From IMG/VR virus record IMGVR_UViG_3300005253_000530: DNA of 64,000 bases; one strand, 5' to 3'. This DNA comes from a virus (taxonomy: Duplodnaviria; Heunggongvirae; Uroviricota; Caudoviricetes). This document shows positions 1 through 38,217 of this stretch, one piece after another. Position 1 is the stretch's first letter. Every line of letters begins with the position of its first letter. The notes beneath the pieces are model-generated. The model was given only the letters and a program-made list of their open reading frames with translations. It was not told the origin of the DNA and did not search any database. A program made the translations under genes and the position numbers.

Positions 1-397
1 CTCTCAAATTCTACTTCTCGTTTTTTATAAGGGAATATTTTACCACATTTACTACAGTGGCATCTTGTTGATATTAGTTCTGCTTGGGATTTTTTTGGCA
101 TCTTATTCTCCTATTGGCTAGCACCCCGGCTTATAGATAATTTTCTATTGTTTTGTATATAATACTCCATGTGTCTGTATTATAATGTTCTCGACTTACT
201 GTAAGATATATATGAGGCCCAAAATGACCATCATAGTCAATGTCAGATACACCATCGATGTCTATTAGTTGCCTATATAAAGGCTTTTCAGTGTCCATGT
301 CTTTACGCATGATATCTAATAGATTTTGTACTGATACTTCTAGTACATAATTAGTGGATGCTATTCGTGCTGTTATCATAGTAATCCTCTTTTCGTG

Positions 398-469
398 AGC
401 CGCTACGAGGACTCGAACCCCGTTCAGAGGTTTACAAAACCCCCGCTCTACCAGGTGAGCTATAGCGGC
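398..469 (-). tRNA. tRNA-Thr (anticodon UGU)
   Basis: Minus-strand cloverleaf GCCGCTA/TAGCGGC acceptor, D-arm TAGCTCACCTGGTAGAGC, anticodon stem GGGGU/ACCUC with loop UUUGUAA, T-arm CGGGG-TTCGAGT-CCTCG; read by eye. Confidence 0.75.
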
Positions 470-888
470 ATTTATTCATAGTCTTCTATGTATATTGTTT
501 TTACAAATGATACTACTTTTGTAGGGTGTGCAGAAAAATCTTTTAATACTTTGTCTTCAGCTACCCTTTCTGCTGCTTCTTCTTCAAAGTCTTCGACTGT
601 AGTGAATGTACTTTCCCATGTTCCGTCTGTAAAACATACAGCCACTTCAACATTGTGTTTTTTATAACCCATAGTAATTCTCCTTATAGTTTGCTCAAAT
701 CTATTTTTGAATCAAACCCTTTGATCATATTGCCTTCAAATATGGCAATAGATTCTTGTCCTAATGCTTTAGCCAATTCTCGTATACTTTGGCCTGCGAG
801 ATGTAATACTTCCGGGTCACCATCGGTCTCTCTTATACATACAACAAAATAGGCTTTTTCTTTTAACATGATGATTACTTTCCTTGTG

Positions 889-971
889 TGCCGATAGAGG
901 GAGTCGAACCCACACGCTTGTTAGGCACTGGTTTCTAGGACCAGCGTGTCTACCAATTCCACCACATCGGC
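889..971 (-). tRNA. tRNA-Leu (anticodon UAG), long variable arm
   Basis: GCCGATG acceptor, GGAATTGGTAGAC D-arm like bacterial tRNA-Leu, anticodon stem CUGGU/ACCAG loop CCUAGAA (C at position 33 is unusual), long variable arm, T-arm GGGTTCGACTCCC. Confidence 0.65.
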
Positions 972-1844
972 TAAATTTTTATTTATACATATCTTTCAGT
1001 TTTTTTAATAGTTTATCATCCTCCATACAATAGGGAGCGTTGAACGGCGTCATGACATTTAATAATAGTTGTACAAGTCTAAGATCGGGATTCTTGTTCC
1101 ATATTCTTTCTATTTCTTTTAGTATCTCTGGTATTCTTTTTGGATCTCTCATTTTTGATCCCCTTAGCTGACATAATTATTTCATCATAATTTTTATCAT
1201 CCGCTATTGCACCAGCAAATTCTCCGCCGATGTCTTCCATCCAATCTCCAAGATCTCCATCCCACATAGTGTTAAAAATATTGTCTTTTTTGTTTCCTTT
1301 TTTACCCACTATAGTTATGTTTACTTTTTTGATCGACATTTTAATTCTCCTTCATTTGAAACTTATTAAACCATTCTTCCAGTGTGTATATAGTTGGTGG
1401 AGATTCAAGCGGCGGGCATCTACCAGGACTAAACATACAGTCGCTAAATTCATGGTAGTAATCGTGAGATGCGAATCTAAGACCCATGAACATGAAATAA
1501 CCTCCTCTATCATACATAGTGCCACGGTTTTTGTAGATAGCTTTTGCCAGCTTCATAAAATCATATAAGCATTTCTTTTTTGATTTATATTCCAGTGGAA
1601 CAGTCATCTGTTCTTTGTGCCCGCCATCAACAACTGTACACCTCATTACTAGTTTCATAATTCTCCTTTATATACCCAGTAGCTTGTTCAATTTTTTAAT
1701 AGCATAATCATATTGACTTACATTTGCTGAGTATTCTGGATTCATAGATCCCATCATGTTTGCACCGTGTATTGCGTCCTTCTTTTCTTTCTTTATTTCA
1801 CGGATCATTGCTAATATCTTCTTTTCCATTTATAATCCTTCCTT

Positions 1845-1917
1845 TGCCAGCTCACGGAATCGAACCATATCCTTGGGTACTTCACGCCCTTATGCGGACC
1901 ACCTACACCAAGCTGGC
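1845..1917 (-). tRNA. atypical tRNA-like gene (good acceptor and T-arm, non-canonical D and anticodon arms; possibly Phe-GAA-like or pseudogene)
   Basis: Acceptor GCCAGCT/AGCTGGC perfect, U8, G18G19 present, T-arm UAUGG-TTCGATT-CCGUG; but D-stem does not pair and anticodon arm forms only GGG/CCC with a 9-nt loop CGUGAAGUA. Confidence 0.35.
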
Positions 1918-1925
1918 TTACATGT

Positions 1926-1999
1926 TCGGAGTAGTAGGATTCGAACCTACGGCCCTCGCGCCCCAAACGCGATGCGCTACCCGACTGCGCTATACTCCG
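1926..1999 (-). tRNA. tRNA-Pro (anticodon UGG)
   Basis: Acceptor CGGAGTA/TACTCCG, D-arm GCGC-AGTCGGGTA-GCGC, anticodon stem TCGCG/CGCGA loop UUUGGGG, T-arm GTAGG-TTCGAAT-CCTAC. Confidence 0.75.
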
Positions 2000-2007
2000 T
2001 TTATTTA

Positions 2008-2085
2008 TGGTCGGGGCGGTAGGATTCGAACCTACGGCCCTCGCGCTCCAGACGCGATGCTCTGCGCAGACTGAGCTACACCCCG
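2008..2085 (-). tRNA. tRNA-Pro-like (UGG) tandem paralog, genomically encoded CCA, atypical D- and anticodon loops
   Basis: Same anticodon stem and T-arm as the neighbouring Pro gene; loop UCUGGAG (C33); D-loop lacks GG; 3' end CGCCCCG-A-CCA encoded. Confidence 0.5.
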
Positions 2086-2856
2086 TTATATTTAACAACC
2101 ATCACCTAAATCTTTAGGATCTATACCATCCTCCCAATGATTATGATGTATGAATTCTATTTCATTTATTCTATGCCCGCCCACTCTATTGTAATCAAAT
2201 CCACCATCAACAAAGGTCTCAGCTGGGCAGCCACAACTTTGAAAATCATGACGGTACATTGAGTGTAATACTTTTTTACACGCTGGACATTTTATTTTTC
2301 CGCCTATAATAATTCTCCTTCCATTTTTTACTCATATTTTTACCACGATGCTCCAGCAGGATATTGTAAATAACATCCACATAGCGGGCATTCTACTTCA
2401 GTTATACTTTGCTCAATATTAAACTCAGTCTTACATTTTTCACAGCATATTTTTGTGCCTCCTGGAATATCATCAACAAAAAGCATATCTCTAACAAAAA
2501 GTATGTTTGGTTTGGTGTTTACTTTATTTGGTAGTCGAGATATTTTAACTTCATCGTGAGCAGATGGGGTTGCTTTTGACATAGCTTCATCAAATGTTGC
2601 AGCTTCCACATACCATGTTCTAACAACTTTAAGTTTAGCCATCCTAATTCTCCTTTTGTCTAGGTTTTTAATAGCTGTATTCTTTGGCAGTTGGCATTTT
2701 CCAAAAGATCAATGATCTCTTCTAGTGCTCTTACTTCTACTGTAGTTACGTCTGTGCCTAATATAGGCATAGCCACGCTTTCCATTTTTATCTCGTTCCT
2801 AATTTTTTCTGACATACTTTTTAATAATTCGATTCTATGCACTGTAATTCCTCCTT

Positions 2857-2929
2857 TGCTCCGACCGGGAATTGAACCCAGCTTTCTGCCTTGAGAGGGC
2901 AGTGTCCTAAACCGATAGACGACCAGAGC
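2857..2929 (-). tRNA. tRNA-Glu (anticodon CUC)
   Basis: Strong resemblance to bacterial tRNA-Glu (TCGTCTA...GGACAC, anticodon stem CTGCC/GGCAG loop CUCUCAA, T-arm CTGGG-TTCAATT-CCCGG). Confidence 0.7.
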
Positions 2930-3340
2930 TTACGATTTTTCAAGACTGCCCTGCAATCTTTGTATTACATGGACAAATCTTCTGTGCATACCATTAAGGG
3001 CTGATTTATACTCAGCGTCAGAATTGTAGTGATTATCTGCATTTAAGCATTTATCTAAGTGTAAGTCTGTGCAAGCTGAATCAAACAATTCTTTGAATCG
3101 TTTTTCTTCTATTTGTATAACTTTCATTTTAATTCTCCTTATAGACCATGCTCTTTTTACATATTGGGCACTCACTCAGTATTTTTTCACAGTTATCGCA
3201 GTCGCCGTGTTCGTCGCTATATGTGTACCCCGCTCCTTGATCCTCATCACAGTAACAATCTGAGACTTCCATCTTATGGTCATTGCCACAATTAACGCAT
3301 GTAATATCAAGAAGTCCTACTGACATGATAATCCTCCTTT

Positions 3341-3366
3341 TGCTCCGACCGATAGACGACCAGAGC
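3341..3366 (-). pseudogene. tRNA-Glu remnant (5' and 3' ends of the 2857..2929 gene joined, about 48 nt internal deletion)
   Basis: tgctccgacc|gatagacgaccagagc matches both ends of the tRNA-Glu(CUC) gene; the upstream RBS/gene-start context (aatcctcctttgctccgacc) is duplicated with it. Confidence 0.6.
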
Positions 3367-3658
3367 TTAATAAATCTTTTACTTTTACCAAATATTTGTT
3401 TCTTCTACATAAAGAACACTTCTAACGGGGATAAGTCTGTCACATGGGTCATCTCCTCCTGTTCCCCATTTTCCTATGACAAAAAAGCCTTGTTTACCCC
3501 ATCCCACTATTTCAACAGGGTCTATATTCCAATTGCGAGACCACTTGCTGCGTCCCCGCGCTTTATGTTTATCGTCAAAATATTGATATCCACAGTTATG
3601 CCTGTTTACCTCTACTTTTTCCCCGTTTATTAGTGTTAGCTTCATAATAATTCTCCTT

Positions 3659-3730
3659 TGCTTCCAGAGGGTATCGATCCCACTTCTGCGGGGTGAAGGC
3701 CCGCTATCCTAGCCAGTAGACGATGGAAGC
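3659..3730 (-). tRNA. tRNA-Glu (anticodon UUC)
   Basis: Acceptor GCTTCCA/TGGAAGC, Glu-type D-arm TCGTCTACTGGCTAGGA, anticodon stem GCGGG/CCCGC loop CCUUCAC, T-arm GTGGG-ATCGATA-CCCTC. Confidence 0.65.
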
Positions 3731-4131
3731 ATCTACTATATAAATGCTATACATATTAATGCGGCTATTATACTAATACCTATAAGTATAACAAGAACGT
3801 CATCAAATCCAAGTTTTCTTGGTTTATCCAATTCGTGAAAAAATCTATAATCTTCTGGATATATCATAATTTCTCCAATAAAAAAGGGATTCAGATTGTC
3901 TCTGAACCCCTTGGTGTTTTCTATGTTTCGTTTGTTTTATCCGGGATGTGGATCCGGATCCACCAAGGGATTTCCAATATGATTATCACGTTCTCTGAGC
4001 AAACTGGTGGCGGGCGTCCCTGTATATATAAATGAGACGGATAAACAACTCGGTTTTTGTTGCCTTAGTATGCTCGAAAACATTGTATCCTCCTTGGTTT
4101 AGTTGGTATTAATTTAGTATTGGTATATTAT

Positions 4132-9422: not shown

Positions 9423-10790
9423 CTATTTCAGTGCTGTGGATAAATATTTAGACACTTCCTCTATAAGAACGTCTCTTTGGTTCATCGATTGATCCTCTAT
9501 TACTATAGATAATAAATAGTTTAGTATATGACCTATAGTAGGACCAGGCTTCAAATTGAATTCTTCTATGAGTACGGTGCCATCTATATTCAGATCTTTA
9601 ACATGTAGCACTCTAGATTGATTATAGACTTGTTTTATACGTTTCTCAAAAGATATTTGTCTCGGTGATATTTCACTGAGATTTAGACCATTTGCTGCTC
9701 TGTCAGCTTTTCTTAGTAAAAATACTGGCATACGGCTTAGCTTTTTTATTTCTTTGTTCGAGATATGTATTTTAGCTATAAATCTGCGAACTGCTGCATC
9801 TGACCACCTATTAGGCTCATAGTTGTACATATGATTATATATTAGGTCAGATACTACTAATGCCATTTCTTTGTCGAATTTTAACCTTCTTAGTATGCGC
9901 CTCGCCATTTTTGCGCCGGTGACTTCATGATTATAGAACGTTACTTTATATTTGCCTCCTCTTACAACCTCTTCTCTTACCTGTGGCTTGCCGACATCAT
10001 GTAATAAAGCTGCTAATCTCAATACCAAGTCTCTTTCGGCATTACCACAAGCTGTTAAGCAATGAGTTAATACATCATATTTATGATATTTCCTGTTTTG
10101 TGTTACCCCGTCACATATACTTAGTTCAGGTATGATCATATGCATAAGACCTGAGTCGTGCATTGTTCTCAGATATTTTGAAGGCTTTTGGCTCATAACT
10201 ATTTTTATGAACTCAAATTTTATTCTATTTATAGATACTTTCTTTACTAATGCATGGTTTGATTTAATCGCATAAAATAAATTGCTATCTATTCTGTAAT
10301 TGAGGTGTGCTGCCAGCGACAGAGTTTCCATCATAATAGCTGGATTTTGTTTCGTAACTAGATCTGCCTTTCCAATGACTTTAATTTTTCTGTTCCGAAT
10401 ATCGTTTCGACCACGATAAATGTCTATAAGACCTTTTGGGCCTTTTGATGCTATAGGTAGATACATCGCATTTACTGTAAATGCCTTTTCTTTTGCATCC
10501 TCCTTTAATGTGAAATATGGACTATATTTACCTCTTTTCTTTGGATTCCGTATAATGAAATTTATGTCATCTGTGGAAAACGAGATACATCCCTTTAACT
10601 TCTCTATTTTTAGATTTTTACGATGCCGGCGTAAATATTTTGATACTGTTTGTAATGATATTTGTCTTACTACTATCTCTATTTTGGTGGACTTTTTTCG
10701 CCTCACAAGATTACAAACGTATCTGCCTGCATAATATATTTCAGCCGGAGTCTCCTTGTTTAGTTTCTTCAGTATTGATATTATTTTCAT
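9423..10790 (-). CDS. CCA-adding-enzyme/poly(A)-polymerase family protein with HD domain; head-domain catalytic motifs degenerate
   Basis: Class-II NTase body motifs FTVNAMYL, DIYRGRNDIRNRKIKVIG, ETLSLAAHLNYRID and HD motif LLHDVGKP; but GGxxRD...DxD replaced by AGRYVCN...KIEIV. Confidence 0.65.
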   Translation of the reverse strand: MKIISILKKLNKETPAEIYYAGRYVCNLVRRKKSTKIEIVVRQISLQTVSKYLRRHRKNLKIEKLKGCISFSTDDINFIIRNPKKRGKYSPYFTLKEDAKEKAFTVNAMYLPIASKGPKGLIDIYRGRNDIRNRKIKVIGKADLVTKQNPAIMMETLSLAAHLNYRIDSNLFYAIKSNHALVKKVSINRIKFEFIKIVMSQKPSKYLRTMHDSGLMHMIIPELSICDGVTQNRKYHKYDVLTHCLTACGNAERDLVLRLAALLHDVGKPQVREEVVRGGKYKVTFYNHEVTGAKMARRILRRLKFDKEMALVVSDLIYNHMYNYEPNRWSDAAVRRFIAKIHISNKEIKKLSRMPVFLLRKADRAANGLNLSEISPRQISFEKRIKQVYNQSRVLHVKDLNIDGTVLIEEFNLKPGPTIGHILNYLLSIVIEDQSMNQRDVLIEEVSKYLSTALK

Positions 10791-13209: not shown

Positions 13210-14004
13210 TTATAATCCTGCGTATCCGCTATATCCATATACTTCTTCCATATGAGCTTGGTCCGTAGTTTCAGATTTGTCCCCTTTTTTTTCTCCTTCT
13301 TTTGGTTCTTTATCTGCTGGTATTTCAGCAAGTTTTGGAGCTTTGTAAGTACCCTCTTTAATAGCCTCTATCTTTGTTTTCATTCTCTCAATAGCACTAG
13401 ATATTGGATATTTTGTTGTTCTTCTTATCACAAAAGTTTCTATTTCTTTTTTCTTGTAGGTAGTGATAGGCCTATTATGATACGGAGCACCAGAATAAGC
13501 ATGGTTTACAGGGTTATAGGTTGCAGCTTTGCTAGTAGTTTTGTTAGCAGGTTTGTACGTAGGTTTTATATCGTCCTCTACTAGTTTCTTTGTCGCCTCT
13601 GGTACATTCGTATAACCATCTGTATCAATAAGTCCATTAGGGCGTAGCATATCGTACTCTTTTAGGGCTTCCTGGACACACGTCAGTCTTTCAATGTTCA
13701 CTTCTTCTTTATAGGCAGAATATTTAGTGTAAGAGCCATTTATATTGATTTCCATAAACTTGATCTCGTAATGGCTGAGATTTAGCATTTGAACTTCTTC
13801 ACCCTTCATCAGCCATACGAAAAGATCATTTTTATTGACCAATTGAACATTGATATCAACTAATCCACGCAAACCGAGGAAATACCCGGCAATTACTGGG
13901 CCTTTCTTGTCGGCTTTCGCCGTAAGCCCAACCACCACATATTTGATACCCTTAAGTTTCTCTGTTGTGAATGCTTTTTCTGTGACCATTTTTTCTCCTC
14001 GCAA
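13210..14004 (-). CDS. hypothetical protein
   Basis: 264-aa ORF in operon between ruvB-like and GNAT genes. Confidence 0.5.
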   Translation of the reverse strand: MRGEKMVTEKAFTTEKLKGIKYVVVGLTAKADKKGPVIAGYFLGLRGLVDINVQLVNKNDLFVWLMKGEEVQMLNLSHYEIKFMEININGSYTKYSAYKEEVNIERLTCVQEALKEYDMLRPNGLIDTDGYTNVPEATKKLVEDDIKPTYKPANKTTSKAATYNPVNHAYSGAPYHNRPITTYKKKEIETFVIRRTTKYPISSAIERMKTKIEAIKEGTYKAPKLAEIPADKEPKEGEKKGDKSETTDQAHMEEVYGYSGYAGL

Positions 14005-14404
14005 ATATTATAATATGTCTACCACGACCCCATCTTTTCCCTATAGGTCTCATACCTACCCGTAAATTATTCCTTATATTCGTGTGATTATCACTACCAA
14101 CAGCACCATATACAAATTCAGTAGTAGCCGCTTGAATGCCTTTTTCAAGTAGTTTTTTACCTAGTCCTCTTCTTCTATAATTAGGATGAACGCATAGGTG
14201 CTTGAGCTCAGTCGTAAGGCCATATTGCTCAAGCCCTATCACGCCCGTTATTATTTCTCCATCTAATTCTATTAGATATTTTACTGGACTAAGAAGTATT
14301 GAACTTTCGTTCAGTCGGGCCCATAGCTGATCTCCAGCATTGATCATATCTGCTATCTGTACAGCTATGTTCCTGGCACCGACTGTTAGTACAAATTTAC
14401 TCAT
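13952..14404 (-). CDS. GNAT family N-acetyltransferase
   Basis: Acetyl-CoA-binding motif LCVHPNYRRRGLGKKLLEKG. Confidence 0.75.
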   Translation of the reverse strand: MSKFVLTVGARNIAVQIADMINAGDQLWARLNESSILLSPVKYLIELDGEIITGVIGLEQYGLTTELKHLCVHPNYRRRGLGKKLLEKGIQAATTEFVYGAVGSDNHTNIRNNLRVGMRPIGKRWGRGRHIIIFARRKNGHRKSIHNRET

Positions 14405-14408
14405 TTAC

Positions 14409-15494
14409 TCACATGTCTCCCCTCATTAAGGCGGCTATTACGGCTTGTGCTTCTTCATCATTACGAACATTACGCATAACTCTGGTCATACCGCCATTAG
14501 GAGCCTCATCTGCTACTGCTGCACCAACCGCTCGGCCCCGTCTTGCTGCAGGCGCCGGTCTTGCTGCAGGACGTTCTTCTCTAGCAGGAGCCTCAATTTC
14601 ATTGATCTTGGCCCGGAATGCTTCCACATATTTCTGTAAAGCTGTTCCTTGTAGACCGGGGCCGCTGTTGATCTCGATAAGATAAGGGTTATTGTCCAAT
14701 CCAATTGCGCAATCGACCGCACCAAAGTCCAAACCGGTAACTTCTACGGACTTTATGGCCATAGCCTTCAATGCGTCTGAAACATTATTTAACGTGACGC
14801 CGGAAAACTTCCATCCCCTTTTGTTGCTTCGGACTATACGATCTGGCAGTTCAGCTTCCTTCACTAACAGGCTAAGAACATAATTCAAAGTGGATTCATC
14901 CAGATTTTGATTATTTTTCTGTGCATAATCTAGCACTTTTTCTTTACGCTGTGCGATCCAGCCGGCATCGGTCGGGTTTTCAACCTTCTTTACTGCATAT
15001 ATAACCTGACCAAAAGCCACATGGAGCCGATATTCGTCTTTGATGTCAATATAGTTCTGAAAATACTGGGCACCGTCATGAATGGCTCTTTCAACATGTT
15101 GCTTATTTAAACATGTCCAGAATCCTTTACCGCCCTGGTGAAAATTTGTGCGACCAACAAGCGGCAATTTGATGTCACTTCTCCGCCGGTCCATTGCAGC
15201 TATGACCTCATCAGCTCCGCAAAAGGCTGAGATAGCCGGTTTTGTCGCTCGATTTCCATACAAAGATGTCAATGTACTCATTTTGTTCCGGTTGTTTCGA
15301 ATTTTATCCGGGTGATTAAGTATGGTTGCGTTATCCAAACGTACAGCCGCATCTGTCTTGGCTCCCCATCCGATTATGATATCACCATTTTGGATACTCC
15401 GGGGCTTTGACTTTGTACCAGTTAATCCCAATGCGTCCGCTAAAGCCTGGCCGGTTACATCAGTTGCTCCACTAAACCAAATATATTTTGACAT
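14409..15494 (-). CDS. ATP-grasp ligase (RimK/alpha-L-glutamate-ligase-like) with GC-rich Ala/Arg/Pro-rich C-terminal tail
   Basis: ATP-grasp motifs EYRLHVAFGQV, GLDFGAVDCAIGLDNNPYLIEINSGPGLQG; last about 60 aa PAREERPAARPAPAARRGRAVGAAVADEAPNGG encoded by locally GC-rich DNA. Confidence 0.75.
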   Translation of the reverse strand: MSKYIWFSGATDVTGQALADALGLTGTKSKPRSIQNGDIIIGWGAKTDAAVRLDNATILNHPDKIRNNRNKMSTLTSLYGNRATKPAISAFCGADEVIAAMDRRRSDIKLPLVGRTNFHQGGKGFWTCLNKQHVERAIHDGAQYFQNYIDIKDEYRLHVAFGQVIYAVKKVENPTDAGWIAQRKEKVLDYAQKNNQNLDESTLNYVLSLLVKEAELPDRIVRSNKRGWKFSGVTLNNVSDALKAMAIKSVEVTGLDFGAVDCAIGLDNNPYLIEINSGPGLQGTALQKYVEAFRAKINEIEAPAREERPAARPAPAARRGRAVGAAVADEAPNGGMTRVMRNVRNDEEAQAVIAALMRGDM

Positions 15495-15764
15495 GTTATT
15501 TCTCCTTATTTTAATAGGTTAAAATCCCTTTCTACTCCACTCCTCCTATTTAGCTACCACCGTGTCTATACTGACAGGCGCTGTGACAACCGCTGTTATC
15601 TCGTCTTTTGCTGGGTTTGCAGTCATGGTGACAAAAGACTGACTATTAGGAAAGCTATAGCGTGCCTCAATATACTCTGCTATAGCCTGCAAGATATTAT
15701 CGTTCGTCAAAGTAAATATAGATTTCTCTTTATTGCCTAATAGTTCCATGTTATTCCCCCCTTG

Positions 15765-17108
15765 TTATATTATGAAATTACTATTACCAACCCATGTGTG
15801 CTTCAATCCTTTCTCCCTTTCATTCAGCACATTCTGAGGTAATCTAACTACCTCTATAAATTTATCTATATAATCAGCATACTCTCTGTATGTCTGTAAT
15901 GACCTGTATCTTGACTTTAGCTCATCGAAATAACTTTTTCTGAATTCTATTTCCCATTTATGTAATATATTTTGCATAGCTCCAGAGCTAGAAGTAGTAT
16001 TAAATGCCTTTGTAATTTCTATATTCTTCCATTGATCAAAAGACATATCGAAGAAAGTCAAATCAGTGTGGGCATACCAATCATCGGTCTCTTGGTGTTC
16101 TTCGGTCATAATCAAAGAATGCTTAAAATTACCATCTTCTAAGGCTCTAAAATATGCGTGAGCTATAGCTTTTACTGTGCCTATGACTATTCTGGCCAGT
16201 TCTGGATGAGTTAACCACTCACCACTTAAAGTACGATACTCTAATCTATTATGATCAGTCTTGTGATCTCCAAAGCGACCAAATGACTTTCTACGCTTCA
16301 TTCCATTCTTTTTACCATCAAGCTTCATCATTGGTACAGCTACATAATCGTCTAATATTCTTTGTAGACACGCGTACACTGCGTGTGAGTAATTACTACC
16401 AAATGAACTTATCTTTTGAGCTAAATTTGCTGGTGTCCCTAAATGTATGTGGCCTCCAACAGGCCAGTCCCTTCGACTGTTGTCAGGATCCGCACCCGAT
16501 TCATGCCCAGAATGGTTACACCCACCGACCCATTCATACAGAGCTATTAACTTTGTATTAGGGTGATTTGTTAGTATGCCATGTATATTACTTACAAAAT
16601 CTTCTACTAGTATCGCAGGCTTTGGCCTTAGTTCAGCCAATGGCCCGTCTGATCCGAGCTCGTCATTATGACTCAGATTATTTACTTTTGATGCATACAT
16701 TATGTTACCATCCTTATTAAATAACATAAACTCAGGGTCACCGCCTACTACTGTGTCCTCAACTGTATCTGCTAACCATATATTCTCTTTACTCCCGCTA
16801 CCGTTCTTACAGACATAGCTAAATATAGTAGAAGTTACAAAACCAACCCTTTCAAAATCGTCAGCACTCATAGATTCTTTAGCTTTTTTTAGATCTGAAG
16901 AGTAAGCTTGGAATATTTCGAGACTTTTACTTCTGTTTATTCGTCCATTTGTATCAGTATTAGGCCATACCTCTACAACTTTTTCATCAGCTAGCCCAAG
17001 ATTTTCTCTAGCTTTTACTCCTAGTCTGATCAGACCGTTTTCATTCCTATCATTCTTTCTGTTGGAATCCATTCGGTCTGATATGACTAATATTAATGGA
17101 GCTTTCAT
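15765..17108 (-). CDS. GCS2/glutamine-synthetase-like carboxylate-amine ligase (amidoligase), paralog B
   Basis: GGDPEFMLFNKDGN ... GSDGPLAELRPKP ... GGHIHLG; shared with 22726..23928 and 41042..42268. Confidence 0.6.
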   Translation of the reverse strand: MKAPLILVISDRMDSNRKNDRNENGLIRLGVKARENLGLADEKVVEVWPNTDTNGRINRSKSLEIFQAYSSDLKKAKESMSADDFERVGFVTSTIFSYVCKNGSGSKENIWLADTVEDTVVGGDPEFMLFNKDGNIMYASKVNNLSHNDELGSDGPLAELRPKPAILVEDFVSNIHGILTNHPNTKLIALYEWVGGCNHSGHESGADPDNSRRDWPVGGHIHLGTPANLAQKISSFGSNYSHAVYACLQRILDDYVAVPMMKLDGKKNGMKRRKSFGRFGDHKTDHNRLEYRTLSGEWLTHPELARIVIGTVKAIAHAYFRALEDGNFKHSLIMTEEHQETDDWYAHTDLTFFDMSFDQWKNIEITKAFNTTSSSGAMQNILHKWEIEFRKSYFDELKSRYRSLQTYREYADYIDKFIEVVRLPQNVLNEREKGLKHTWVGNSNFII

Positions 17109-17120
17109 ACGTCATCCCTC

Positions 17121-18944
17121 CTAACTTTTTGTTTCTTTTGCTTTCTTAATGACTTCTTTTACCTCTTTAATCATTTCTTGTTCTCGGGTATTAAATACTT
17201 CTGCTATTTTATCCATGTTCACTGAAATGTCACTTCCAGACACTGCGTTAAACAGTCTGGCTCTTGCACTAAGATTTTGGCCCTTTCCATTGCTAATACT
17301 TGAAGTCACATCATAGAATTTTGCAAGTGCTAGAACCATAGACTTCAATCCAGCTATATGACTTTCTCTGCGTTTAGATTTCTCGTCGTCAGCTGAAGAT
17401 GGGCCTTCTGATTTTTTCATAGCTGTTTCATATCCGGCCATGAACCCGTCCTTCCAGTTGATATTGAATGCTCTGTTGGCTACCATAACTATGCCAAGCT
17501 GTTCGGCTTTCTTCTCATTTTGAATATCTATAGCAGAAATAAGATCTTCCATGTTCCCATATCCCTTTTTATCTATAGGCATGTCAGTATATGCATTAGT
17601 AGCAGCTTCTATAATCTCTTTGGGATATTGCTTCATGTTAACTTCAGTTACTTTGATATCTTTTTCATCTATATCTATGACTTCATCATCTGATCCTTTA
17701 TTCTCAGTATATGTTGTTTTGTCATCGATATCCACCGAAGAGTCACTATCTTTTTGCTCAATAGTATCCTTGTCTCCATCATCAGTGTCTGATTTTTTAT
17801 TAGCTATTATCATTGCTGTTGTAGTAGATCCAGTGGTTGTATTCTTTACTGTTTTGACCTCGTCAGTATCTACAGATATAGCAGCAGACTCGTCATCTTG
17901 TATTTCAGTATCTCCAATTTTTACTACATACTTTTTCGTAATCTTATCAAATACTCTACGTGTTGGTTCTTCCTTTTTCTCATCGGGTTTATTATAAGAG
18001 TACGGCTTACCGTAATTTTTACCGGTGCTATATGTCGTAGCAGTTGTAGCTATCCATATTTTGCTACTTCGCTCTATTTTACTCCACTCACCTAGGTCAT
18101 CAATGGTAGTATCTTCTGTAACCTGCTGAGTCAAATCAAATATCATAGCGGAATCATCTGGCAGACTTTTCTTTTCAACAAGCTTTTTATTGAGAAAGGT
18201 TGGTAGATCCGAACCACAAAGCTCAGGATAATATCTAGGCCATCTTACATATCTGAAATGTATTTTATTCCAGAACTTTTCTTCAGATATTATTAGTAAT
18301 ATACCGTATTCTTTCAGCAGCACAAATTCTACAGGGCGACTATCACGAAATATTGGTACTTGATATGGGTTATCAGCATTGAACAGGGAGATTGCAAACT
18401 GACCATCTAGTCTATTTACTATATTTTGTATCATATTCATAGTAAATGGCTCTTTGCCACAGTTCGTGTAATGATCAAATAGCCTGAATATTGCTTCACT
18501 GTCTACTTTTCCATCTCGTTTGCATCCAAGCTTTTTGAATATTTCATCTGGATTCCTAATCACTCCATTATGAATGCCTATTAAATTACCAATTTTGATA
18601 GGGTGATTATTTTCATTGTCTTCTTTATCACCGGCTGTAGCAGCTCGACAATGTCCCAGAAAAATTCTACTAGGGGCTTTATGTTCTCTCCACACTTTTA
18701 ACAGGCTGCCGTACCATTCTTTCGATTCACCAAACATAGATAAGTAATCAGTGGCTCGTTGGCCTCTTTTTAATCCCATATATTTGCCATCATCGAACAA
18801 TATGGCTGCTCCTGTGGCATCTTTGCCTCTTTCTTCGGTGGCTATCAGCAGTTCGGTTGTGAAGTATTGCATTACCCCTTGCCTTACGATTTCGTCCTTT
18901 TCGCTTAATTTGCCGAATGCCAGTGCAACTACTATTCCGCACAT
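17121..18944 (-). CDS. class-II glutamine amidotransferase (Ntn, N-terminal Cys) with long low-complexity C-terminal extension
   Basis: MCGIVVALAFG N-terminus (catalytic Cys2), GHCRAATAG, Gn_AT_II-type core; Thr/Asp/Ser-rich linker then C-terminal domain. Confidence 0.7.
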   Translation of the reverse strand: MCGIVVALAFGKLSEKDEIVRQGVMQYFTTELLIATEERGKDATGAAILFDDGKYMGLKRGQRATDYLSMFGESKEWYGSLLKVWREHKAPSRIFLGHCRAATAGDKEDNENNHPIKIGNLIGIHNGVIRNPDEIFKKLGCKRDGKVDSEAIFRLFDHYTNCGKEPFTMNMIQNIVNRLDGQFAISLFNADNPYQVPIFRDSRPVEFVLLKEYGILLIISEEKFWNKIHFRYVRWPRYYPELCGSDLPTFLNKKLVEKKSLPDDSAMIFDLTQQVTEDTTIDDLGEWSKIERSSKIWIATTATTYSTGKNYGKPYSYNKPDEKKEEPTRRVFDKITKKYVVKIGDTEIQDDESAAISVDTDEVKTVKNTTTGSTTTAMIIANKKSDTDDGDKDTIEQKDSDSSVDIDDKTTYTENKGSDDEVIDIDEKDIKVTEVNMKQYPKEIIEAATNAYTDMPIDKKGYGNMEDLISAIDIQNEKKAEQLGIVMVANRAFNINWKDGFMAGYETAMKKSEGPSSADDEKSKRRESHIAGLKSMVLALAKFYDVTSSISNGKGQNLSARARLFNAVSGSDISVNMDKIAEVFNTREQEMIKEVKEVIKKAKETKS

Positions 18945-20200: not shown

Positions 20201-21130
20201 TTAATATCCATTCATAATACAATTAGAACATACTCCTGCGTTACATTCAGACATCATGTCATATCCTGTATTGCATAGACTGCAATCATGTGCATTACTA
20301 TTACCCCCAATTTCTCTCCGTTTTCCAGCAGACCATGGATGCTTATAGTCGTCATTGTCTAAATCGAATTCTAATATTTTGCCAGTTTCCAGGTCTATTC
20401 TTACCCCGCTCATAGAGATGTCTATACTTTTACTGGTATGTGCAGGGTTTAGCCACTTAGAGTGCTCTAGAGATTCATTTAGTATGAATTTACTAGATGC
20501 AAAAACCATACTTCTTACATTTTTGTATATATATAATATTGCATTGGGATATGATAGTGCATTACTGAATAGAGTCAAATACCTTGGCATATCAGTGTGT
20601 ATAAAAGCACAAGCATATGATCCTGTCATCTCTCCGTGAGCAAGTTTTACTGCTTCAACTATTGTTTTGCCAGTAGAAATATGATAATCTATTAATCTAA
20701 ATATTATTTCACTATCTACTTGCCCCAGTCTGTTTATACAATCTGAATATTTACTAAATAAACTATCATCATTACCCACCATGCCATTATGTACTCCAAT
20801 AACTTTATTAGCTATTATCGGATGGTTGTTTTCATTTAAACGCTGAGTACCTTTAGTTTTTTGTCTTGTGTGCCCTATCATAGCTTTAAAGTTTTTAGCG
20901 CAGTTTATATTTTTTACGACGTCACTATATTCAGTAGTACGCACCAGCTTTGATCCTTTGAAAGCCTCTTTATATACAGAAACTTTTTCTTCTGTCAATA
21001 CACATATACCCGAAGCATCTTTACCTCTTGATTCTGATGCTTTAAGCAAATTATAAGTGGCTTTACGAAATGAATGAGCTTTATCATAAGAATTTGGCCC
21101 ATAGTTTATCAACCCAAATATTCCACACAT
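20201..21130 (-). CDS. class-II glutamine amidotransferase (Ntn, N-terminal Cys), short form
   Basis: MCGIFGLINYG N-terminus, GHTRQKT, NNHP motifs. Confidence 0.7.
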   Translation of the reverse strand: MCGIFGLINYGPNSYDKAHSFRKATYNLLKASESRGKDASGICVLTEEKVSVYKEAFKGSKLVRTTEYSDVVKNINCAKNFKAMIGHTRQKTKGTQRLNENNHPIIANKVIGVHNGMVGNDDSLFSKYSDCINRLGQVDSEIIFRLIDYHISTGKTIVEAVKLAHGEMTGSYACAFIHTDMPRYLTLFSNALSYPNAILYIYKNVRSMVFASSKFILNESLEHSKWLNPAHTSKSIDISMSGVRIDLETGKILEFDLDNDDYKHPWSAGKRREIGGNSNAHDCSLCNTGYDMMSECNAGVCSNCIMNGY

Positions 21131-21143
21131 AAAAGTATTTCTC

Positions 21144-22772
21144 CTATACAGACAACATGCATCCAGTAGAATCCGACCAGATCATTTCGCCTTCTCTCAT
21201 TTTTGTATCTACAAATAATTCAATTTCCTCTTTACTGACTGTATCAGTAAGATCTTCGTCTTCTGATAAGCACTTTTGGACTTCTATTACCCATTCATCA
21301 CAGCTTACGCAGTCATCAATTAGTTTTAGATCGATTATTTCACTCAACTTCACTTCTAATATATCTGTACTCTTTATTTCAACAGCTAGATCCTCTTCTA
21401 TTTCTTTCCATGTTTTTCCATCCATTAAGTGTAAGGAAGCAGGACGTTCGGCTAACTTAATAAGAATATTGTATGCTGGGCCTATCTTCAGTAATATACT
21501 TTTCAATTGATTTACTAGATCAAGGCTTTCTTCTACAAAGTACTGCGTATTGTCCAACAAATGTCTAGTATCACTCATGCGACTACTATCGTTATAATCA
21601 CCGCAGCCATTCAGGATTGTTTCTTTCATAGCCTTAGCCTTCTTCAACCAAGCCTCATCCCCAACTTTCAATAATCCGTATCTGCTTATTTCGACCGCCT
21701 TTATAACAATAGCATAATGTAAACAAGCCAAAGCTGCATAATAGGTGGGACACATAGTTGAATCCGCCTGCCTGAATTCAATATGAAATCTATCTATATC
21801 TCCACCACTAAACCTGGTTTTGTTATAATTGATAAATCCATATTTGTTGCCACCAGCATGTCTAGATACATCTTCAATAACACGCCTCATATCCTTTGTA
21901 ACGGGCGATACATCAAGGATACCTACTCTAAATTTTTCCCAGCGAGTCATGTGTCTGGGGTCACCTAGGGCTATGGTCATCCATGTTAATGCATTCTGAT
22001 ATCTCCTGCATAACTGATGAAAATTTGCAAGAACTATTTGGGGCATAGGTTTTTCTAATTCATTGGCCCCATCACCCTCATAATAACTGGTTAATACGTG
22101 CATATGGGAACCAGTTCTTTCGTTTAAATATCCACCATATTTTTCTACTTTATCCAATATTCTTTTGGACATTGTATAGAATTCCCAGAAGTCTACACGC
22201 CGGCCAACGGTTATAATCTCTACGCCTTTGTCACCAAGTAGAGAACCATCTGTTGTTATACCGACAACACCAGATGGGCCTACCTTACCGTATGTTTTAC
22301 TAGGCTGCAACTCCGTATTCAAATTTTGCCTAATGTGCTTTGGGTCCTTATTTATGTTATACTTTTTAGAACAACTACCACAGTTCTTATCGAAATGATT
22401 ACATGTAAAACACGCACTAATAAAATCCACACAAGTACTACCTATGCATGAGAACTCATATTTATTGCATTTTTTACACTTGTCTGGCTTACATTTTCGG
22501 CTTTGTGCTATACATGTATCATAGCATTTTTCTTTTTGACAGACTGGTGTATTAGTACATTCTTTCCAGCAGCCATCGCCTATACGAGTACAAGGACATT
22601 GTATATTATCACCTTTACAGGATCCTTTTTGATCTGGTAAGTTGAATTCAAATTCAATTCCAACTTTCAACAGTTTCCGCATTGATTCTTTCCAATATCT
22701 AGCCTCTGCTGCACCTAGTGCTGGTTTAGACGGATGACTGTAGAACTGCCATTTCTCTCTGTTGTTCCTCAT
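21144..22772 (-). CDS. Cys-rich GS/GCS2-like amidoligase-family protein
   Basis: N-terminal LLKVGIEFEFNL (GxExE strand of carboxylate-amine ligases) followed by a Cys-rich insert (about 25 Cys). Confidence 0.45.
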   Translation of the reverse strand: MRNNREKWQFYSHPSKPALGAAEARYWKESMRKLLKVGIEFEFNLPDQKGSCKGDNIQCPCTRIGDGCWKECTNTPVCQKEKCYDTCIAQSRKCKPDKCKKCNKYEFSCIGSTCVDFISACFTCNHFDKNCGSCSKKYNINKDPKHIRQNLNTELQPSKTYGKVGPSGVVGITTDGSLLGDKGVEIITVGRRVDFWEFYTMSKRILDKVEKYGGYLNERTGSHMHVLTSYYEGDGANELEKPMPQIVLANFHQLCRRYQNALTWMTIALGDPRHMTRWEKFRVGILDVSPVTKDMRRVIEDVSRHAGGNKYGFINYNKTRFSGGDIDRFHIEFRQADSTMCPTYYAALACLHYAIVIKAVEISRYGLLKVGDEAWLKKAKAMKETILNGCGDYNDSSRMSDTRHLLDNTQYFVEESLDLVNQLKSILLKIGPAYNILIKLAERPASLHLMDGKTWKEIEEDLAVEIKSTDILEVKLSEIIDLKLIDDCVSCDEWVIEVQKCLSEDEDLTDTVSKEEIELFVDTKMREGEMIWSDSTGCMLSV

Positions 22773-23928
22773 TACCTAGCAACCTCCAATTCAACTCTAT
22801 ATTTTCATTAAACCTTGCTTTTTTATGAGCGTAATTCAATATGTAGTCAAAATAATTTATTATTTGTGTCTGGTTATCTTTGAATCCTATCATCATAGAC
22901 AGATCGTTTAGTATTGCATCTATGTGTGACATGGACTTATTCATTGTTTCTGAAACTACGCTGTCATGTACTACATTTTCATTCGGTAAATTAGGGTATA
23001 GTTGTCTAAGATCTTTGTAATCTCTAAACCATATCTTTTTCCTAAATCTATCAGAATGAGCACTTAATCTACTCAGTATATCTTTCATAACAACTATACT
23101 TATAGACAAAATGCCAGATGAAAGTATAGGGTGCCGTAATAAGTGGCCTCCTGGTACTCTATACTCTAATGTCATCATGTCATGCCTGAAATCTCCAGGT
23201 TTACCATAATGACTGAATCTCTTAGATCGTCGATAGAAATCCTCGTTACCTTCAGGTAATACAGCTGGTATTCCAACGTAGTAATCCAGGACACTTACTA
23301 TATTTCCAAGTAAGGCGTGCATGTTTTGTAACATAAATTGTGGTAGTCCAAAATGTATGTGGTATCCAGCAGATGCATTATTACAATGGGAAGAAGCTTC
23401 CATTCTTATGTCTTGTTTTCTAAATAATACTCTGTTACTAATATGCTCATGTGCTCTGGCCATTAGTTTATACAATTCCTCTGATACACCTTTTTCCTTT
23501 AAACTTGGCCGTGGTCTTATCTCTGCCAGGCCACAATCACTCCCAACTTCTCCATAATGAGGAAAAAAGTGGCTTGCTGATACATTGAATCCGGTAGTCT
23601 TATTCACCAGAAAAAATTCCGGGTCACACCCTATAAGTATATCATCGGCTGGTTTTATACTTGATATTAGATTTAGATCCAATAAATCATGTGTGTCTGT
23701 ATTTACATATACGCTTTCATTGTCTTCAAAGGCGTCAATTTCATAAGCTGTTGATACTTGTAGTGCTATTGGTTCTCCATCTTTGCCGTTTAGGCATAAA
23801 AAAAGTCCGGGCTCTAACCCGAACTCTTCTCTCAATTTTAGGGGTATTCGTATCAACCTATTTTCAATAGACCCCAACGGAGATGTATCTTTCCCCATAG
23901 ATGGAGATACTTTTATCTTGAACCTCAT
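22726..23928 (-). CDS. GCS2/GS-like carboxylate-amine ligase (amidoligase), paralog A
   Basis: IGCDPEFFLVNKTTG ... GSDCGLAEIRPRP ... AGYHIHFG. Confidence 0.6.
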   Translation of the reverse strand: MRFKIKVSPSMGKDTSPLGSIENRLIRIPLKLREEFGLEPGLFLCLNGKDGEPIALQVSTAYEIDAFEDNESVYVNTDTHDLLDLNLISSIKPADDILIGCDPEFFLVNKTTGFNVSASHFFPHYGEVGSDCGLAEIRPRPSLKEKGVSEELYKLMARAHEHISNRVLFRKQDIRMEASSHCNNASAGYHIHFGLPQFMLQNMHALLGNIVSVLDYYVGIPAVLPEGNEDFYRRSKRFSHYGKPGDFRHDMMTLEYRVPGGHLLRHPILSSGILSISIVVMKDILSRLSAHSDRFRKKIWFRDYKDLRQLYPNLPNENVVHDSVVSETMNKSMSHIDAILNDLSMMIGFKDNQTQIINYFDYILNYAHKKARFNENIELNWRLLGNEEQQREMAVLQSSV

Positions 23929-29512: not shown

Positions 29513-32500
29513 TTAGTCTCCTTTAATTAGAATTTTGTCTATGTATGCTGCCAACTCTTCGTATGCGGCTCGCATGTTTTCAGTTGTCAGCACATTACGA
29601 ACTTTTATTTTCTTAGCCTTGATCCTATCTAATACATCCTCTACATCTTCTCTTTTCGACTTCAAGATTCTGAACAGCATGAAGCTGGGAAGATCCAACG
29701 GTGCAGATCGTAAATGGTCCAAGAGATTAAACGGGCCTAACAACGCCCTACTTGCGAAATATATCTTATTTTTCCTCCTTACAATGAAATTGATTATCTT
29801 GCTTCCTCTTCCTTCTTTTGCGGCTTGGTGAAAACTGACCAAATCCCATATCCTTAGACTGGCAGCCTCTAGAAGTATCAAATCGCATAGCAATTGGCTT
29901 GCCTCCCTGTCGAAACCCAGCCCAACCATCTTTTCTGTATCTGCGACACATATAGCATCTGTTGCCTCTTCCTGTAGAGATTTGATACCATGTTTTTGCC
30001 TAAAAACAGTATTACCAAGAAAATCCAGTAGGACTTCTAGATGTACATGACTTTCTGCTTCCGTATAAGGGACACAGCGCTCAACTATCCGCATTAGATT
30101 ATAAGCCAATGCAATTACCGGTCCAGTATGACTTTTTACACCAGTAGCTTTCCTTACAAGCTCCGCATGCTCCTCGTTAGTAGGTTTAGGAAATTTACAT
30201 ATCTGAAAATCGTCCAAAGTCATTTCCCTATGCTTAGGAACTTTCTTTGCATTCATACTCTCAATGATCCTATTACATAGATCGTTTGGTTCTCTCATCT
30301 CTTTGCGTAGTAATTCAATAGACGCAGGGTTATGAAAGGACGCTATAAATAGGCTGTCACCATCAAAATCAAGATTTTCAGAAGTAAGACTGTTTCCACT
30401 AACCCTTATGACATATTTACACTGTGGATCATTTGTGACTCTTACATATTGAGGACGTATGGACATGAATCCAAGACAAGGAAATCTTTCCACTAATACC
30501 ACATCCCCCGTCTTCACCTTTAGTGCTCGTGCCATATCACTATGAATTTCTATTGTATTTTTGGGCAAATTATCCACAACACAATGCTTCAGTTCAGTAG
30601 GATAGTCGTCCTCGTTGTCGGCTAGGGCAGCAGTTGCTCTACTGGAATAAGGATATCTTACTGCCATACCATATGTGCTTAGCTCCCCGTTCTTTCCACC
30701 CATCATCCTGGATACATTCTGAAAGTATCTTGTAACAGCTCTCATCAGTTCATTCTGATCATTTACATCTCCTGTTTCTATAAATTTATGAGAAGCTATT
30801 ACTATATGATTGACATATAGCCCAACGGTATTCAGTCCCCATTTACCAGACGGATGACGCCAGCACCTTCGAGATAGAGCATTGGGTATAAATATTGTAT
30901 TATAAATATACTCTATCTTCTGGCCCGGATCTAATATTTCTTGTGGTAGACCCATTGTATATGATTCTACATCTTCTTTGTCCACGATAGCCTGAAAGTA
31001 ACTTGGTATACGCAGTATAAATCCTTCTGGCATATATTCGTCATCAACTATAGTACCTTTGATATTAGCCAAATCGTGAAATATACCCTGGGTTGTATCC
31101 ACGCATGCCACATCTTTGGCATCAATTACTGGAATGCCAGCATCTATTTCACCCTTAGCAGACCTGAGAATGTCTATTCCGTCCTGCAACATGGATACTC
31201 CCTGCGAATAGGACATTATTTCTTCCAGCAGTGGGTTACCTTGGCCGAATCTGGTAGTCAGAGCCTTCATCTCTACATGACTGAACTTTAGCCCAGATGT
31301 CCTCAGTTCTCTGTTATTGGTTAGCTCTGTCCTATCTTCTTCCCACAACTGATCTTCCGGGTCCTTAGTTACTCCCCAAAACATCTTCCCCACTATTGCC
31401 TGAGATTCTCCAAAATATGTATCGATCATCGAAGTTCCATCTTTTGGGAATCCTTTGGATTCTAACGCTGCTTCAAGTTTAGATTTTTCCACCAAAATAT
31501 CATCTTTGACCACGATAGGAACATTTCCCTCATTTAAGTTATTTGCGAGAGCCTCAAGAATTTGACCAAAGTTCTTACGCTTATTGATAGATGTGCCAGA
31601 CATCATTACATCTATTTGCACTTCTTCACCGGTTCTTGGATCCACTTGATGCCCCAGGTCCATAAAGCGTATAATGCCTTTATTACCATGTAAATTAGAG
31701 AATTTACTACCATCCCTTAGAAATCTCTTCCCCTTCACAGTTACCACTACGAGCTTTATTTGTTCGCCATTCAGATCAGTTACAGTTCTGTTTACCTTTG
31801 TTATCTTTGCCTCATCACAACGCATATCCATCATAACTGGCTGACCATCTTTTGAAAATCCAAGCACATCCCCAGTTCTTACCTCTTTACCAGCCTTTGC
31901 AAGTATGTGATCACCATAGATGGCAAATCTCTTTGTTACTGTGTGTGATAACCCTCTGTGCCGGTTGTCTGCAAGAATTTGATCCTCGAAGTTTAGAACT
32001 GTATCGATAATAGCAGTTACCATGTTCCAGCCTTTTCTATCGATGCCTTTCTCAACCAGCTTTTGTATGGACTCAGACCTGATATTTGGTAACTCGTCGC
32101 CTTTCATCCCAAGAGTAGAATATAGATTTCTCTGGGGATTATGGTATTGTCCAAACGGAGTTATATCTCGTAGATCTGTGGTCATTAGATAGTTTTTATC
32201 AGACAACACACCGTCAGATAATCCTATAGCTGTCCACCCAAATTTACCGTAATATCTTTTGTTCTTGTCGACCTGGTACTCCAGTTTCTCGTTGGGATCA
32301 GATATATACTCGAAAACTGGGTCTATAATAATAAGCCGATGATTCATCGCCCAGCTATTCATATCTGTCTCATGTAGTGGCATAATGTTTATAACACTGT
32401 TTAACAGCCTCTGAGTCTCACTCACCATATACACCACTCGATCCCTGTCAAAGGACTTTACGATCTTGTGTACCATCGGACTACCACTCATTTGCGACGG

Positions 32501-33004: not shown

Positions 33005-33013
33005 AGCAGACTC

Positions 33014-34114: not shown

Positions 34115-34134
34115 AGGAATTATCCCTCCTGTAT

Positions 34135-37709: not shown

Positions 37710-37711
37710 TG

Positions 37712-38215: not shown

Positions 38216-38217
38216 TA

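Follow-up and report, generated by a model that had tools for sequence, protein, structure and literature searches.

The 64,000-nt stretch of DNA analyzed here (the window) belongs to a virus of the Caudoviricetes (IMG/VR record IMGVR_UViG_3300005253_000530) and encodes on its minus strand a 361-residue ATP-grasp carboxylate-amine ligase, the gene for which has a GC-rich 3′ part. A gene for a COOH-NH2 ligase lies immediately upstream and one for a GNAT acetyltransferase immediately downstream (Table 1). An earlier reading of the same DNA (the original prediction) took the last ~190 nt of the ATP-grasp gene for a compositional island encoding an Ala/Arg/Pro-rich C-terminal tail, and proposed that this tail was recently acquired or fused and that it could be a substrate for self-modification or a docking element. 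We find that the GC-rich stretch encodes a disordered Ala/Arg/Pro-rich linker, which joins the ligase core to an autonomous conserved α-hairpin.

Table 1 Features at and around the ATP-grasp gene, with positions in the window
Feature	Position	Strand	Basis
ATP-grasp carboxylate-amine ligase gene, 361 aa, distant RimK/LysX-like	14409..15494	-	Open reading frame, Pfam/PHROG, AF2/Foldseek
Catalytic core, aa 1-301 (last helix 283-301)	14592..15494	-	AF2 secondary structure; ends of phage/PDB matches
Disordered Ala/Arg/Pro-rich linker, aa 302-334, basic half then acidic half	14493..14591	-	GC1/2/3, pLDDT, alignment
RGRAVGA motif, aa 319-325, inside linker	14520..14540	-	Family consensus [RK][RA]AVGA[D/E/A]
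Helix-turn-helix hairpin, aa 335-361, GMTRVMRNVRNDEEAQAVIAALMRGDM	14412..14492	-	Conservation, AF2
Possible Shine-Dalgarno sequence AGGGGAGAC for GNAT, within codons R358-G359-D360	14415..14423	-	Read from sequence
Antisense ORF, 90 aa, spurious	14413..14685	+	Wholly antisense to conserved coding region
Antisense ORF, 64 aa, spurious	14445..14639	+	Wholly antisense to conserved coding region
GNAT acetyltransferase gene, immediately downstream of ATP-grasp	13952..14404	-	Pfam Acetyltransf_1, E=1.5e-10
COOH-NH2 ligase type 2 gene, immediately upstream of ATP-grasp	15765..17108	-	PF14395, E=1.6e-25
Class-II glutamine amidotransferases (GATase_6)	17121-18944 and 20201-21130

The ligase core and its family

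The enzyme belongs to the ATP-grasp superfamily, as had been proposed: it scores 30.5 bits against Pfam RimK (PF08443), above the curated threshold of 21, and matches phrog_2599 with E=1.4e-32. A search of 5.8 billion proteins with the ligase returned 564 matches, the best 120 of which are nearly all 349-390 amino acids (aa) long, with a query coverage of 98-100% and an identity of 49-100%; alignments were made of 40 sequences (A1) and of 122 full-length homologs. In an AlphaFold2 (AF2) model based on the 40-sequence alignment, the predicted local distance difference test score (pLDDT) of the core is >90. Compared with the PDB by Foldseek, this model gives 595 matches at E<=1e-3, and the best 50 of the 595 are ATP-grasp ligases (ArgX/LysX, RimK, PsnB, MdnC, and Ddl); for ArgX/LysX, RimK, and the graspetide ligase PsnB, the enzymes with the closest solved folds, the acceptors are in all cases carboxylates of proteins or peptides. 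ATP-grasp enzymes are recognized by a catalytic acidic residue and an ExN motif that closes the kinase-like domain (PMC4431377), and the phage ligase has both in D261, E274, and N276 (AVDC...IEINSGPG), which are invariant in the 40-sequence alignment.

Scores for narrower families lie below their cutoffs. The ligase reaches 38 against a cutoff of 143.4 for RimK proper (NCBIfam TIGR00768, rimK_fam), 22.7 against 331 for the S6-Glu ligase equivalog NF007764, and 16.8 bits against 26.2 for R2K_2 (PF18299) of the R2K clade (CDC123/R2K.2/R2K.3, PMC4431377), for which no stretch passes alone. Matches from known phages and from the PDB end at about aa 289-305, leaving the linker and the hairpin as a C-terminal extension to the catalytic core.

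GC content and codon usage

The GC content of 14409-14600 is 53.6%, compared with 36.9% for the whole window. Within this region the GC-rich part proper is only ~100 nt long and coincides with the linker (62.5% GC), while the last 81 nt before the stop codon, which encode 27 further residues, have 45.7% GC; thus, the 3′ part of the gene is GC-rich as originally described, and the ~190 nt are elevated as a whole, but the strong enrichment covers little more than half of them. In a sliding-window analysis the peak 90-nt window begins at 14503 with 64.4% GC (z ~4.7; mean 0.369, standard deviation 0.059), and for all window sizes between 60 and 192 nt the spike at the linker ranks first or second among all windows. 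The sole rival GC island, at ~1894-2085, is a tRNA-Phe/Pro/Pro cluster, and the linker stretch is the strongest GC spike within protein-coding sequence of the window.

The excess is confined to the first two codon positions. In the linker (aa 303-334), GC at the first, second, and third codon positions (GC1, GC2, and GC3) is 0.875, 0.781, and 0.219, respectively, compared with 0.446, 0.349, and 0.305 in the 29 long open reading frames (ORFs) of the window, so that the third positions match the AT-richness of the phage or exceed it. When synonymous codons for the amino acids of the linker were drawn from genome-wide usage, the expected GC content was 63.3%, and the observed value is 62.5%. The spike therefore arises because the linker is built of Ala, Arg, Pro, and Gly codons (GCN, CGN/AGR, CCN, and GGN). 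The linker of the relative L001 has 60% GC with a GC3 of 0.19, and that of the relative L005 has 56% GC with a GC3 of 0.38, the core of L005 having a GC3 of 0.44. Atypical GC3 or codon usage, a mark of horizontally acquired islands, was not found in the linker, and the comparison of codon usage that the original prediction had proposed as a check on acquisition thus came out against it: the GC-richness is a by-product of the amino-acid composition of the linker and not foreign DNA. As a compositional anomaly the spike is ordinary, and it illustrates that an Ala/Arg/Pro-rich disordered linker can by itself create a sharp intragenic GC spike in an AT-rich phage, which a check of GC3 settles quickly.

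We also considered whether the two plus-strand ORFs opposite the 3′ part of the gene (Table 1) are real overlapping genes that account for its composition, an idea that is almost certainly wrong. Both ORFs are open, and in relatives the linker likewise lies opposite open antisense frames of 61-112 codons; however, sense codons rich in GCN, CGN, and CCN are unable to yield antisense stops, and the open frames are a side effect of this suppression. Moreover, the fourfold-degenerate sites of the minus-strand frame are as free to change in the linker (7/20, or 35%, differ between the window and L001) as in the core (28/104, or 27%), and the indels that occur freely in the linker would break an antisense protein. 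Thus, no overlapping element, be it an antisense gene or an RNA structure, constrains the linker DNA, and the ORFs are spurious, as the original prediction had it.

Two side observations concern base composition elsewhere. The tRNA-Phe/Pro/Pro trio, which is the highest GC island of the window, belongs to a set of seven minus-strand tRNA genes (Thr, Leu, Phe, Pro, Pro, Glu, and Glu) in 397-3731, especially 1845-2085. The ATP-grasp core has a GC3 of 0.42 compared with 0.30 expected from genome codon usage, and core GC3 is fairly high in the relatives L001, L002, and L005-L007 (0.44-0.63); a foreign origin of the whole gene was considered on this ground and rejected, since the gene ranks only ~10th of 67 ORFs (+1.2 standard deviations, not significant).

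Linker and C-terminal hairpin

The peptide that the original prediction quoted as the end of the protein, PAREERPAARPAPAARRGRAVGAAVADEAPNGG, comprises residues 303-335; it is the linker and not the C-terminus, since after residue 334 the protein goes on for 27 residues, which form the most conserved part of the tail. In the AF2 model the block means of pLDDT along the linker are 48, 36, and 55, with residues 317-334 at <50. Across the 122 homologs its length varies from 23 to 66 aa (median 38) around a composition of 27% Ala, 12% Arg, 10% Val, and 9% Pro, and its mean pairwise identity is 0.21, compared with 0.59 for the core and 0.405 for the C-terminal hairpin. Low complexity, low predicted order, and fast change by substitution and indels with composition kept identify this segment as an intrinsically disordered linker.

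Two features of the linker are conserved nonetheless. An AVGA-like motif is present in 110/122 homologs, with the G in 107/107 motif-centered contexts, and A322 and G324 are conserved in at least 90% of sequences in the 40-sequence alignment; the residue after AVGA is D or E in only ~53% of homologs. In the six-frame translation of the window, AVGA is unique to this site, and a regular-expression search that also took in the six frames of L001 and L002 gave matches in two places only, the ATP-grasp tail of the window and that of L001. The motif also divides the linker by charge, the part before it having a mean charge of +4.7 (positive in 96% of homologs) and the part after it a mean charge of -2.9 (negative in 90%). 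Relatives with an identity of at least 50% have an Ala/Arg/Pro-rich linker that consists of a basic half, RRAVGA(D/E), and an acidic half. Prohead-protease-type cleavage sites follow a pattern of the [S/A/G]-x-E kind; a site of this type at AVGA(D/E) was considered and dropped because Glu follows the motif in only ~23% of sequences.

The positive charge invites a different reading of the tail, in which the basic half would be a nucleic-acid- or ribosome-binding segment that aims the ligase at a nucleoprotein substrate (ribosome, tRNA, or DNA-bound proteins) and the hairpin would be an accessory. In agreement with this reading, the segment before the motif is basic in nearly all homologs, divergent relatives have Lys/Ala/Pro-rich stretches such as KKAAAPKVAAKG, which we take to resemble histone-H1-like tails, several neighboring genes have products that act on nucleic acids (a RuvB-like ATPase, a helicase, a sigma-like protein, and a CCA-adding enzyme), and the ligase and the GNAT are RimK-like and RimI-like, respectively, though only at a sub-threshold level. 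Nevertheless, we consider this reading rather unlikely, since the adjacent acidic half largely offsets the positive charge, some divergent linkers (L027, L028, and L030) are short or Ser/Thr-rich with little charge, and the most conserved element of the tail is the hairpin rather than the basic segment.

In the full-length AF2 model the hairpin consists of two terminal helices (334-341 and 346-357) with a pLDDT of ~75. When the tail was modeled by itself (aa 318-361, 35-sequence alignment), the same helix-turn-helix was obtained with a hairpin pLDDT of ~91, and the prediction is therefore self-contained and independent of contacts with the core. The segment follows the consensus G[LM]xxxMxNVxx[DP]EEARxV[IL]xxLM, in which M340 (112/122), V343 (115/122), E348 (118/122), and A349 (117/122) are the best conserved; a capping box, S/T/N345-D/P346-E347-E348, marks the start of the second helix, and a hydrophobic face is conserved as well. 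Classes of hairpin can be told apart by their sequence (NVRxDEEARAVI or NAVxSPEEARRVL). This pattern of N-cap box and hydrophobic face points to structural conservation. Consistently, the strongest covariation of the whole protein is found within the hairpin (z 8-13; mutual information with average product correction, effective number of sequences ~87), while by the same measure covariation between hairpin and core is weak and scattered (z <=5.3, with a slight, uninterpretable excess at residues 213-216 and 285-301).

The hairpin appears to be peculiar to this protein family. A hidden Markov model (HMM) of it, run against all six-frame ORFs of the window and of 25 related loci, matched only ATP-grasp orthologs. 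A profile of the tail from AVGA to the end, run against 1.84 billion representative proteins, gave 10 matches, of which seven are fragments or members of the same family and three are PPR/TPR-like repeat proteins; the homology search with the tail alone, as suggested by the original prediction, thus points to no donor family and to no other protein that carries the tail. With the 44-aa tail model, which is too small for the purpose, Foldseek found no matches in the PDB. A PPR/TPR-like α-hairpin repeat unit (e.g. TLMNKASSFEEAKDLLDLM) does fit the hairpin pattern, but these proteins are tandem arrays of 6-7 or more repeats, whereas the ligase has one isolated hairpin, and the likeness is probably structural convergence rather than homology.

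Because the closest folds (ArgX/LysX-LysW, RimK-RpsF, and PsnB-precursor) ligate onto protein or peptide carboxylates, the tail could also be a substrate or pseudosubstrate in cis: the ligase might modify its own C-terminus or carboxylates within the tail, or the tail might autoinhibit the enzyme in its active site. A conserved acidic patch (D/P346-E347-E348, together with the D/E after AVGA), carried by a flexible tether whose length suffices to bring it to the active site, would suit such a role. However, the final residue is acidic in only 13/122 homologs and the last 3-5 residues are variable, E348 lies within a canonical helix N-cap box and so would have a structural role, an acidic residue follows AVGA in only about half of the homologs, hairpin-core covariation is not strong, and AF2 leaves residues 317-334 unplaced. 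We therefore regard a role in cis as quite unlikely, and the self-modification substrate envisaged by the original prediction finds little support.

The tail across relatives

All 122 full-length homologs (41-100% identity), from genomes of 30-42% GC, share one architecture: a core ending in KIxEIE, the linker, and the conserved 27-aa C-terminal segment. Tail-bearing relatives of only 41-48% identity are found on IMG/VR contigs of 45-269 kb (L004-L009) and on contigs of metagenome-assembled genomes (MAGs; L027-L030); they keep a similar hairpin, e.g. KVKLMSDMVAAADEEEASVLGNIFKKMFG, and have Lys/Ser/Thr/Ala/Pro-rich linkers that lack AVGA and are not GC-rich in low-GC genomes. The Ala/Arg/Pro composition of the linker is kept down to ~50% identity. 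Among known phages, megablast of 13900-15800 gave no match in GenBank, and tblastn found only relatives below 30% identity (24-29% over aa 1-299). Only the remote phiEco32-type enzymes (25-29% identity, 244-281 aa) stop at the core; the tail was thus added long ago, at the base of the tail-bearing subfamily. Patchy presence among close relatives, another mark of an acquired island, was not observed. Altogether, the alignments indicate that the whole tail has been inherited vertically within one subfamily of phage ATP-grasp enzymes.

These observations bear directly on the proposal that the tail is a foreign module, acquired or fused recently from a GC-richer source. The local spike of 62-64% GC in a window of 36.9% GC and the lack of a tail in remote phage homologs are what such an event would leave behind. 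But the GC3 of the linker is lower than that of the genome (0.22 compared with 0.31), native codon usage predicts its composition, its fourfold-degenerate sites have diverged like those of the core, the tail is present in every full-length homolog down to 41% identity, and the tail profile finds no donor family; recent acquisition is thereby refuted. The original prediction had named conservation of the tail with the same composition in distant homologs as evidence against acquisition, and conservation is what was found, of the composition down to ~50% identity and of the hairpin down to 41%; relatives that have the ATP-grasp enzyme without the tail, for which it had suggested looking, are limited to the remote phiEco32-type enzymes, with none among the 122. 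The idea of an add-on holds to the extent that the tail extends the enzyme relative to the phiEco32 type, but the addition is old and not recent.

A scan of genome contigs found the tail-bearing family only on MAG contigs (L026-L030), which are assigned to unrelated taxa (Atribacteria, Muribaculaceae, Parcubacteria, Sulfurimonas, and Woesearchaeota); most likely they come from phages and were mis-binned, and they therefore point to no host. With contigs of up to 270 kb among the closest relatives, the phage lineage seems to be poorly sampled and may be one of jumbo phages. In the window, five large ORFs in 29513-40754 (1163, 366, 313, 337, and 366 aa) and a sixth at 60210-61115 (301 aa) have no PHROG match at E<=1e-5.

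Gene neighborhood

In the tail-bearing loci the ATP-grasp gene is part of a module with a strictly conserved order: unk542, GATase, (unk413), GATase-607, COOH-NH2 ligase, ATP-grasp, GNAT, (unk264), RuvB-like ATPase, sigma-like protein, and CCA-adding enzyme. L001-L009 all keep this order, and in every tail-bearing locus the GNAT gene directly follows the 3′ end of the ATP-grasp gene, making the GNAT, which resembles RimI at a sub-threshold level only, the prime candidate for a partner of the hairpin. In the window the GNAT start codon (ATG at 14404) follows the ATP-grasp stop codon by 4 nt. The ligase of the window and of its closest relatives ends in MRGDM, the codons of which overlap AGGGGAG, a sequence that could be the ribosome-binding site of the GNAT gene; such an embedded Shine-Dalgarno sequence would explain the RGD ending in close relatives.

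Linkage of the ATP-grasp gene to a PF14395 ligase and to class-II glutamine amidotransferases (GATases) assigns the module to the phiEco32 type. In tail-less relatives, the neighborhood contains no more than one ligase and a GATase. The literature treats phage genes for amidoligases, GATases, and ATP-grasp enzymes of this kind as functionally untested, with proposals ranging from cell-wall to host-protein modification (PMC10580990, PMC4431377, PMC7824862).

Discussion

Having a disordered linker that varies freely in sequence and length and a terminal hairpin that is conserved and predicted to fold by itself, we lean, without great confidence, toward a model in which the tail is a flexible tether that presents a docking hairpin for binding in trans. 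In this model the linker would act as a charge-segregated tether, basic in its first half and acidic in its second, and the hairpin would bind a second ligase subunit, a partner enzyme of the module (the adjacent GNAT being the first to consider), or a target protein. Docking of this kind would keep the ligase near its partner or substrate. Of the functions suggested by the original prediction, we infer that docking is the most plausible, since it fits a disordered tether with an autonomous conserved hairpin.

Several observations count against this model. The hairpin is found on no other protein of the window or the related loci by local HMM search. There is no precedent for it as a portable domain either, given that the tail profile gives only generic PPR/TPR-like repeats outside the family among the 1.84 billion representatives. 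A purely passive tether does not account for the conserved basic-then-acidic pattern and the AVGA motif. Finally, the co-occurrence of tail, GNAT, and module is confounded by shared descent, as all tail-bearing loci represent one phage lineage.

The phiEco32-type phage ATP-grasp enzymes (PHROG 2599, "ribosomal protein S6 glutaminyl transferase"), which occur in the amidoligase/GATase clusters of Iyer et al. 2009 as these are recounted in PMC10580990 and PMC7824862, share the ATP-grasp core and the link to a COOH-NH2 ligase (PF14395) and class-II GATases; however, at 244-281 aa they have neither linker nor hairpin, and the GNAT, the 542-aa protein, and the second set of ligase and GATase are missing from their clusters. 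RimK, the S6 poly-α-L-glutamate ligase (PDB 5zct, 5zk6, 7qyr, 7qys, and 4iwx), which extends the C-terminal Glu-Glu of this ribosomal protein with Glu, is the best PDB match by sequence (E=6.5e-07) and a top fold match, but identity is 14-16% and the NCBIfam scores are far under their cutoffs; moreover, the PDB matches stop at profile position ~303, and no solved structure covers a comparable linker and hairpin.

The carrier-protein ligases LysX/ArgX (PDB 3vpb, 3vpd, and 5k2m), the top Foldseek matches (E=1e-12, TM 0.56/0.70), act on a small carrier protein, to whose C-terminal Glu they ligate an amino acid. Their identity to the phage enzyme is 12-14%, and the latter's own C-terminus is neither conserved nor acidic; none of the genes found beside it encodes a LysW-like carrier that ends in a conserved acidic C-terminus. 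The graspetide ligases PsnB and MdnC, which act on ribosomally synthesized and post-translationally modified peptides (RiPPs), have a similar fold, and TIGR04187 gives a weak match. These two enzymes show that a short conserved helix, the helical leader peptide, can dock onto an ATP-grasp enzyme. Their helix, however, is on a separate precursor peptide, binds in trans, and activates the enzyme, whereas the phage hairpin is fused to the ligase through the linker, and no gene for a precursor peptide is evident.

We speculate, as a long shot, that the hairpin is a dedicated address tag, with two possible destinations. In one, it would bring the ligase together with the GNAT, the COOH-NH2 ligases, and the GATases to form a machine of several enzymes for protein tagging; in the other, it would act in the manner of a scaffold-type helix-loop-helix and load the ligase into the capsid, from which it would be injected with the DNA to modify host proteins early in infection, analogous to T4 Alt. 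In either case RRAVGA(D/E), which is clade-specific, might be a second recognition or processing site. Taken by itself, loading into the virion for co-injection through a capsid- or scaffold-type targeting signal is very unlikely. The anatomy would fit by analogy, an enzyme being followed by a disordered Pro/Ala-rich linker and a short conserved C-terminal element; comparable targeting elements are the helix-loop-helix at the C-terminus of the scaffolding protein of P22 and the cargo peptides of encapsulins. But the HMM finds the motif on no other protein in the window or the loci, and the gene lies among genes of the replication/transcription type, not among recognizable structural genes.

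Returning to the tether with a docking hairpin, the C-terminal module formed by a variable tether, RRAVGA, and a conserved α-hairpin on phage RimK/LysX-like ligases is, in our view, previously undescribed, and its description is of modest value. The ligases that bear it sit in a functionally uncharacterized amidoligase/GATase/GNAT module of large environmental phages, and if the hairpin docks, it would offer a handle for finding the partners or targets of this long-unexplained module.

Additional features of the module

The COOH-NH2 ligase and ATP-grasp genes are separated by a spacer of 270 nt (15495-15764) that holds a 67-aa ORF (15546-15749) without a family match. In L001 and L002 the same two genes are only 27 nt and 14 nt apart, respectively, and the ORF is absent, so that the spacer is a lineage-specific insertion. 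The ORF was considered as a LysW-like carrier and rejected, being absent from L001 and L002 and having a C-terminus that is not acidic.

Two further paralogs of the COOH-NH2 ligase, at 41042-42268 and 22726-23928, bring the total in this phage to three; the first is 408 aa long and matches phrog_3815 at 3e-43, and the second is 400 aa long, with PF14395 detected on its L001 ortholog. Two genes for CCA-adding-like tRNA nucleotidyltransferases are present in the 64-kb window (9423-10790 and 54822-56192), and the L001 ortholog of the former carries PolyA_pol and HD domains. The 607-aa GATase (17121-18944) combines an N-terminal amidotransferase domain with a ~150-aa acidic low-complexity region rich in Asp, Glu, Ser, Thr, and Lys and a C-terminal helical region, so that a long disordered linker is present in another enzyme of the module as well. 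The counterparts of this GATase in L001 and L002 have 611-615 aa, which shows that its length is conserved. Finally, the GNAT gene shares 38-53 nt at its 3′ end (13952-14004) with the beginning of the next ORF (264 aa), the exact overlap depending on the start codon, and an overlap of 38 nt is also called in L001.

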